Source: a virus
Taxonomy: Duplodnaviria; Heunggongvirae; Uroviricota; Caudoviricetes
DNA length: 40,397 nucleotides
Direction: 5' to 3' (one strand)
IMG/VR virus record: IMGVR_UViG_2541047757_000012
Part shown: positions 4,047-4,400 of the stretch, in pieces
Numbering within the stretch: the first letter of the stretch is position 1
Layout: every line of letters begins with the position of its first letter
Notes under the pieces: generated by a model
Databases searched by the model: none
What the model saw: the letters and a program-made list of their open reading frames with translations, nothing else
Told to the model about the DNA's origin: nothing
Translations under genes and position numbers: made by a program

Positions 4047-4400
4047 TTAATCGTCAACCTTCTTACAAGGAAACGAACCTATGATTCTCGGCGCATCCAT
4101 GCTGTTCTGCAGTAGTTGGACATTCAAGAAACGCGTTTCGGTACCCGGACGGCGAATGAACTCGAAACCGTAATTGTTACCGTCTTTGGCTGGCATAAGC
4201 CCCATATCCGCCTTCATTCCATTACCGTTGCCGAGCGTTTTGATTTTCTGGGAGGTAACTGTCTCACCATTAATCCTGAACAATGAATCAGGAATCAACT
4301 CTAATTTGTAGCCACCACACTGAAGCGTGACACCGCCAGGATTCGCAGCAAATGCGAACCCCGGAAGGAAACAGAGTCCAATAACAATCCACTTTTTCAC
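4047..4400 (-). CDS. Hypothetical secreted/periplasmic protein with signal peptide
   Basis: GTG start at 4400 preceded by GAGG; N-terminus MKKWIVIGLCFLPGFAFA then mature domain with two Cys; start overlaps the hub gene stop. Confidence 0.6.
   Translation of the reverse strand: MKKWIVIGLCFLPGFAFAANPGGVTLQCGGYKLELIPDSLFRINGETVTSQKIKTLGNGNGMKADMGLMPAKDGNNYGFEFIRRPGTETRFLNVQLLQNSMDAPRIIGSFPCKKVDD

Follow-up and report, generated by a model that had tools for sequence, protein, structure and literature searches.

Envelope-located exclusion genes lie inside the tail modules of several phages, including gp15 of HK97, llp of T5 and cor of phi80 and N15, and in phage T4 the periplasmic protein Spackle (Sp) inhibits gp5, the lysozyme of the incoming tail. 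In the window analysed here (the whole stretch of DNA, 40,397 nucleotides, of the IMG/VR virus record IMGVR_UViG_2541047757_000012), a gene for a 117-aa protein with a predicted signal peptide (hereafter the SP protein) follows the baseplate hub gene within the tail region (Table 1). The best explanation of the locus as a whole, with a probability of roughly 0.4, is that the SP protein is an exported accessory protein, encoded in a variable slot between the hub and spike genes, that blocks phage entry.

The SP gene was read directly from the minus strand, from a GTG that has one base in common with the hub stop codon (TAGTG) to a TAA at 4049–4047, with the junction itself reading ...GAGGTAGGATAGTGAAAAAG on that strand. 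A Shine-Dalgarno GAGG is located 7 nt 5' of the GTG, no in-frame start is possible further upstream, and the next Met is residue 62. The SP gene is found directly 3' of the hub gene in about 110 related loci; the hub stop falls at the SP start in 76 of 77 IMG/VR loci, and most of about 30 related genome loci have an offset of −4 to +5 nt between the two codons. A hub-SP fusion through programmed frameshifting or readthrough was rejected, since this offset differs from one locus to another (−4, −1, 0, +2, +3, +5) and there is therefore no conserved frame relation. The hub protein also matched Pfam E217_GP41 (E = 5e-5, under the curated cut-off). The SP ORF is a genuine gene under purifying selection and not a chance ORF, with a pairwise dN/dS of 0.125 (hub, 0.08; plug, 0.16; spike, 0.15), and an identical-span CDS of 354 nt is annotated by PGAP in E. 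coli IAI1, where the gene is ECIAI1_RS13235.

Table 1. Features of the hub-to-spike region, in positions of the window.
Feature	Position	Strand	Basis or details
Baseplate hub gene, 355 aa, upstream coupling partner	4400..5467	-	phrog_196 baseplate hub, E = 4.5e-89
Hub/SP junction	4398..4411	-	GAGG 4411-4408, AGGA 4406-4403, hub TAG 4402-4400, SP GTG 4400-4398
SP protein gene, 117 aa (phrog_3443, 'STY1065/STY2022 family')	4047..4400	-	ORF list and translation
Predicted Sec (signal peptidase I type) signal peptide MKKWIVIGLCFLPGFAFA, codons 1-18	4347..4400	-	Sequence features
Mature domain, predicted up-and-down beta-barrel, seven assigned strands	4050..4346	-	AlphaFold2
First AT-rich cargo gene, 176 aa, 36% GC, hydrophobic segments	3510..4040	-	phrog_18554, E = 5e-60
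Second cargo ORF, 59 aa	3334..3513	-	phrog_18231, E = 2e-6
Intrinsic terminator, 9-bp stem, 6 G-C pairs, T-run	3295..3316	-	Scan; 22 nt before spike gene
Baseplate spike gene, 250 aa, downstream slot boundary	2520..3272	-	Pfam N-terminal spike domain, E = 2e-44; GpV Apex motif

The SP protein belongs to a family that is already catalogued but unstudied. A homology search, one of the checks put forward in the first-pass annotation, matched the protein to the phrog_3443 profile (E = 1e-46, residues 9–116 of 117), and a 94%-identical protein carries the PGAP name 'STY1065/STY2022 family phage-derived protein'. The SP protein is the same as this family in sequence, length and post-hub position, with no difference seen, and all of the family features are present (signal peptide, a Cys pair on the first and last strands, and position after the hub). 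A large protein collection contained 389 homologue clusters, all from the Enterobacterales and all unnamed or 'hypothetical'; an exhaustive profile search returned only 44 representative clusters at 50% identity, and the family is therefore narrow. A protein of 4267 aa (P0121) was rejected as a relative, its E-value of 6e-41 being an artefact of summing 19 weak repeat matches (…YVDGSG.PQQFLNVTV…). Membership names the SP protein without explaining it because the family carries no assigned function. There was no match for the SP protein in Pfam, NCBIfam release 20 or PADLOC (0 families), no significant match of its sequence to solved structures or of its model in Foldseek, and no significant Pfam or NCBIfam match for distant family members, and literature searches covering STY1065/STY2022, SEN34, and exclusion or moron terms found nothing on the family.

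The N-terminus of the SP protein has the features of a Sec signal peptide of the signal peptidase I type, a call made by sequence-feature heuristics. Within MKKWIVIGLCFLPGFAFA, which is followed by ANPGG in the predicted mature protein, K2 and K3 form the positive n-region, W4–F15 the hydrophobic core (within the 10–15 residues of a typical h-region), P13/G14 a helix breaker ahead of the c-region, and A16-F-A18 the small residues of positions −3 to −1 before A19, with cleavage predicted after AFA and no lipobox; the best 15-residue hydrophobic window begins at residue 5 (mean Kyte-Doolittle, 2.3). The mature part would comprise 99 aa (10.8 kDa, pI 8.7) with exactly two Cys (C28 and C112). A lipoprotein reading of the window's protein was rejected, as the Cys of I-G-L-C10 is neither part of a lipobox nor conserved, and a lipobox-like motif was present in only 5 of 120 listed relatives. 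Nearly all of these 120 possess a K/R-bearing, hydrophobic N-terminus, most with an AxA-type motif at its end, the few exceptions being truncated or mis-started gene calls. The mean frequency of the commonest residue was 0.40 over residues 2–22, 0.64 over residues 23–43 and 0.82 over residues 44–117, and the form of the signal peptide appears to be kept across the family while its sequence drifts. Among members that are 25–46% identical, C28, L92 and C112 are invariant, with the Cys pair representing the only invariant polar residues and the only cysteines conserved across the family.

An AlphaFold2 model based on a 73-sequence alignment had a pLDDT of 80 overall and 83–92 over residues 21–100, while residues 1–23 (pLDDT about 50 or lower) had no secondary structure and were unpacked against the predicted barrel. 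The first strand (residues 24–28) ends at Cys28 (codon 4319–4317) and the last strand (residues 108–115) holds Cys112 (codon 4067–4065), from which we infer a Cys28–Cys112 disulfide that would close the barrel. Similarity to known folds is at a generic level, with avidins matching as well as or better than PliC/MliC/PhiA. Two distant relatives, P0139 (292 aa) and P0161 (265 aa), are lipoproteins with a C-terminal SP domain (lipoboxes LSGC/TS and LVSC/AH, respectively), preceded by an N-terminal domain of about 190 aa, and the P0139 gene (L007 8001–8879) is located directly after the hub gene, as is the SP gene. The signal peptides, the invariant residues, the model and the lipoprotein-fused relatives together make it very likely that the SP protein resides in the periplasm.

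Several phages with the same baseplate lack an intact SP gene. The hub joins the spike directly, within the same Dit-plug-hub-spike-wedge module, in Providencia PSTCR3, Acinetobacter Ab105-1phi, Salmonella BP63 (a lytic Rosemountvirus) and Pam3. In Hafnia phage yong1, with a hub 78% identical to that of the window, the SP gene is reduced to a 21-aa remnant of its 3' end (L014 4023–4085); two further loci (L052 and L053) hold remnants only, and in some E. coli genomes only 75 bp of the gene are present, under no annotated feature. A baseplate component should be present wherever the baseplate is present, and the SP gene is not. Judged from this distribution, the SP protein is not needed to build the baseplate, and it is almost certainly neither a virion nor an assembly component. 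The remnants in yong1, L052, L053 and the E. coli matches H145–H147 are all short 3' segments beside the replacing genes, and replacement events therefore break inside the SP gene.

Other genes occupy comparable positions. In Pseudomonas phage E217, the gene for gp42 (L136 9595–10128, 177 aa) overlaps the hub stop and is located between the genes for hub gp41 and tip gp43; its product is unrelated to the SP protein, lacks a signal peptide, and is missing from the proteins modelled in the virion map (PMC10329688). Signal-peptide proteins also adjoin the hub in Burkholderia phage Magia (L016 3457–3828, minus strand; opposite strand to the hub) and in PSTCR3 (L015 1963–2436), both of them distant phages with the same tail type, and a homology of Magia gp21 or the PSTCR3 ORF to the SP protein was rejected after comparison found no relation.

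The first-pass annotation had described a 117-aa ORF starting at a GTG that overlaps the hub stop, with a Sec signal peptide and two Cys in the mature part, and had read its product as an exported accessory protein that is not part of the virion. The ORF and its start were confirmed, the strand, previously unstated, being the only correction; the signal peptide is borne out by its n-, h- and c-region features and by the architecture conserved in the relatives, and the count of two Cys is exact. The reading itself is almost certainly right, given the kept signal peptide, the invariant Cys and the same-baseplate phages without the gene.

Among 5426 complete E. coli genomes, the hub was found in 306 and SP-like DNA in 279. 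Most of the SP-like matches covered only the 3' two-thirds of the gene at ~80% identity, and the allele of the window was found over ≥80% of its length in only 22 genomes. The GC content of the SP gene is 46.9%, compared to 48.9% for the window, 54.8% for the hub gene and 36.2% for the next gene, so the composition noted in the first-pass annotation (host-like, unlike the AT-rich genes downstream) was factually right. The separate acquisition proposed there on this basis was not upheld: the SP gene is syntenic and near-universal after the hub in the IMG/VR loci and E. coli genomes counted above, its GC content is near the phage average, and the sporadic cargo consists of the AT-rich downstream genes, the 176-aa gene occurring in 12 of 80 IMG/VR loci. 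The deviant GC content and patchy presence of a moron, an accessory gene with its own transcription inside a late operon, are features of the downstream 176-aa gene and not of the SP gene, and the downstream terminator of a moron is found at the SP slot.

The alleles of the SP gene are distributed differently from those of the tail genes. All tail proteins of phage vB_EcoM-689R2 are 97–100% identical to those of the window, with the SP protein only 57% identical, and the converse was also found (SP, 95%; hub, 83%). Pairwise identities of the SP protein correlated with those of any tail protein at a Spearman rho of 0.22–0.49, compared to 0.6–0.9 among core structural proteins. For locus pairs with a hub ≥93% identical, the median identity was 71% for the SP protein, 92–94% for plug, Dit and W, 78% for the tape-measure C-terminus, 79% for the spike and 42% for the fibre. 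The swapped alleles, low correlations and median identities point to a quasi-core gene with alleles that recombine like host-contact tail parts, independently of the tail genes; such shuffling is typical of host- or phage-interaction genes. A co-variation partner was sought among the tape-measure N- and C-termini, Dit, plug, hub, spike, W, J, I and fibre, and none was specific (rho 0.15–0.49; tape-measure C-terminus, 0.22; spike, 0.30; fibre C-terminus, 0.15). The tape measure (window 6359–8365, minus strand) has a C-terminal 220 aa that is among the most variable regions after the fibre (mean pairwise identity, 47%), and its relatives are annotated as SLT or lytic transglycosylase, with the IAI1 copy 'hypothetical'.

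Some copies and records fall outside this pattern. Two orphan SP copies are located outside prophages, one between yciY and yciI on a 1.2-Mb contig (P0153; L012 8001–8327), the other accompanied by Rep3 and NikA-like genes on its contig (P0162; L011 2651–2995); the nearest relatives of the yciY/yciI orphan (P0167 and P0168) are hub-adjacent in prophages. A contig of Chryseobacterium sp. 18061 (L035) possesses a 92% identical hub and an SP gene, and both this record and OM284015 (Elizabethkingia phage EKP1) are labelled as Flavobacteriia and carry an enterobacterial-type tail module, raising a question of contamination or mislabelling. In the window, mapping to E. coli IAI1 predicts a TIR-domain gene at 31800–33400; no ORF ≥150 aa is present there, and the prophage of the window therefore differs from that of IAI1 outside the tail region.

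Based on locus anatomy across the relatives, the accessory unit has the order hub, SP, cargo, terminator and spike, and the SP gene is the first gene of this accessory slot in SEN34/Brunovirus-like temperate myophages of the Enterobacterales. In SEN34, Mulock, vB_EcoM-689R2 and YP3, the SP gene comes after the hub and is separated from the spike by a variable gene. Between SP stop and spike, the IMG/VR loci have 321 to 2355 nt, and at least 57 ORF clusters were found in this interval in 111 loci (L001–L135), making it a cargo hotspot. In the window, the ATG of the 176-aa cargo gene is 6 nt past the SP stop; its product had a weak match to PADLOC PycTM (E = 2.6e-4), with no cyclase nearby. The 59-aa ORF travels with the 176-aa gene and forms a cluster in 11 loci, next to an 11-locus cluster of the 176-aa family; the pair occurs in 12 of 80 IMG/VR loci and is without annotation in the E. 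coli IAI1 RefSeq record. Cargo of other loci includes a YafO-like toxin (13 loci; Pfam E = 9e-18), a 142-aa protein (24 loci) with no Pfam or PADLOC match, 240–270-aa proteins (one with a weak TPR match), and a further family of membrane proteins with a 65-aa ORF after it. Ten cargo cluster representatives had no match in PADLOC, the weak PycTM match being confined to the 176-aa family of the window. The slot is defined independently of the function of the SP protein, and uncharacterised cargo, including toxin-like and membrane proteins, gathers there.

A terminator-like hairpin lies between the SP and spike genes in 30 of 33 loci, mostly just 5' of the spike start and whatever the cargo. That of the window has a fold energy of −15.7 kcal/mol (z = −3.6), and the sequence is mostly ACCCGCC-NNNN-GGCGGGT followed by a T-run (window, L001–L047), with compensatory stem variants between genera, for example in Photorhabdus. 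In two loci with no same-strand cargo (L055 and L005), the hairpin is directly 3' of the SP gene, and it is absent from loci with the hub abutting the spike. No promoter-like site with ≥9 of 12 matches was found within the hub gene, and a conserved 8-of-12 motif ~128 nt upstream of the SP start sits in a conserved stretch of hub coding sequence. A 9-of-12 site at 4068..4041 was rejected as an own promoter, with its −10 abutting the ATG of the next gene and 4 such sites found compared to 4.1 expected. Because the SP gene is coupled to the hub gene and the hub gene has no promoter-like site, the SP protein is predicted to be made late, together with the tail proteins. The prophage possesses a Q-type antiterminator, and late transcripts would therefore read through the slot terminator. 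That the terminator is conserved even where the SP gene is alone points to transcription of some part of the slot in the absence of antitermination as well, and is compatible with some transcription of the slot in the prophage state. The first-pass annotation had proposed expression in the lysogen, which may occur; the layout of the genes speaks instead for late production with the hub.

An envelope-directed accessory role is favoured because of the periplasmic location, the placement beside envelope-piercing genes, the dispensability for the baseplate and the allele shuffling. Within that role, entry blocking (superinfection exclusion or progeny protection) is, tentatively and by analogy with described systems, the most likely single mechanism. 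The SP protein would be translated from the late tail transcript through coupling to the hub gene, exported through Sec, cleaved after AFA and, once oxidised in the periplasm, folded as a beta-barrel that the Cys28–Cys112 disulfide closes. The soluble periplasmic protein could then bind to a component of the envelope, or to a part of an incoming tail such as the spike, tape-measure or tube tip, and this binding would block penetration or DNA entry by related phages. The conserved C-terminal two-thirds may form the binding face, with specificity set by the variable N-terminal hairpin (residues 29–43). Against entry blocking, the gene is coupled to a late structural gene without a detectable promoter of its own, unlike most lysogen-protecting exclusion genes; there is no specific co-variation with the C-termini of the tape measure or fibre, or with the spike; and comparison of the SP protein with Cor, Llp, Spackle and defence models gave no sequence match and no significant fold match.

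As it stands, the SP gene is an ordinary kind of phage feature, encoding one more exported accessory protein. If exclusion is its role, the gene would be a common and easily testable determinant of temperate-phage superinfection in E. coli, Klebsiella and Salmonella lysogens, with a bearing on phage therapy and prophage competition. It is doubtful that the SP protein founds a new class of soluble periplasmic blockers against contractile-tail penetration, with the hairpin diversifying in a prophage arms race; if so, its targets would be the spike, hub or tape-measure tip of the incoming phage or the envelope site used by them, and the class would be represented by a hub-adjacent quasi-core gene of a prophage lineage found in ~5% of complete E. 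coli genomes.

An unlikely alternative to entry blocking is that the SP protein serves the lysogen as a conversion factor, a periplasmic ligand-binding or inhibitor barrel acting against exogenous lysozyme, protease or toxin in the manner of PliC/MliC/PhiA or T6SS immunity; it would then increase lysogen fitness and not act on phages. In favour, a conserved terminator after the slot is what transcription of slot content in the absence of late antitermination would lead one to expect, the gene occurs in temperate-type genomes but not in the lytic relative BP63, and the orphan copies P0153 and P0162 are located outside phages. However, there is no match to MliC or any other Pfam family, the fold matches are no better than those to avidins, no own promoter was found, and a hub gene adjoins the SP gene in nearly all members, among them the closest relatives of the yciY/yciI orphan.

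It is likewise improbable that the SP protein acts in the lytic cycle as a late envelope factor of the producing cell, tuning lysis or peptidoglycan hydrolases, or neutralising receptor or envelope debris and so sparing released virions. Translational coupling to the hub is kept over about 110 loci, the tape measure of relatives bears an SLT or lytic-transglycosylase-type domain, and late transcripts would cross the slot terminator with the aid of the Q-type antiterminator. However, the prophage is already equipped with a separate lysis cassette made up of holin, GH24 endolysin and an adjacent small gene. Tape measures of lysozyme or SLT type also occur in yong1 and Ab105-1phi, both of which lack an intact SP gene, and the SP protein does not co-vary with the tape-measure C-terminus.

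A membrane-anchored baseplate assembly factor or minor virion protein with an uncleaved N-terminal helix is very improbable, for although the SP gene lies in the hub-to-spike interval, is coupled to the hub gene and has a positional counterpart in the non-virion gp42 of E217, packed tightly against hub gp41 and before tip gp43, that protein is unrelated and without a signal peptide, the SP gene is absent or degraded in same-baseplate phages, most members have AxA-type motifs before the mature domain and an invariant Cys pair, lipoprotein versions exist, alleles swap freely against nearly identical tail proteins, and the N-terminus is unpacked against the barrel in the AlphaFold2 model.

Returning to entry blocking and its described counterparts, the resemblance of the SP protein to the inhibitors PliC/MliC/PhiA is one of generic fold only, without a Pfam MliC match or significance in Foldseek. 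HK97 gp15 and the SP protein are alike in being non-structural, envelope-located, encoded in a tail morphogenesis operon and dispensable for assembly, whereas gp15 resides in the inner membrane and is flanked by a promoter and terminator of its own, and the SP protein is predicted to be soluble and periplasmic, with no promoter seen and no sequence relation to gp15. T4 Spackle is all-helical and expressed early, whereas the SP protein is a predicted beta-barrel of a late operon that does not co-vary with the tape-measure C-terminus. Both are nonetheless small soluble periplasmic phage proteins with a signal peptide (location and cleavage being predicted for the SP protein), and the tails of phages with the SP gene also bear a peptidoglycan-cleaving domain, located on the tape measure. 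Compared to T5 Llp and Cor, the SP protein is without a lipobox (present only in the distant P0139 and P0161) and has no Pfam or NCBIfam match, and its gene adjoins the hub, not a receptor-binding protein, and does not co-vary with the fibre. T5 Llp and the Cor proteins of phi80, N15 and T1 are, like the SP protein, small, Sec-exported, disulfide-containing (export of the SP protein and bonding of its Cys pair being predicted), linked to tail genes and located on the periplasmic side, and while Llp and Cor are receptor-blocking outer-membrane lipoproteins, the distant SP relative P0139 is also a lipoprotein.
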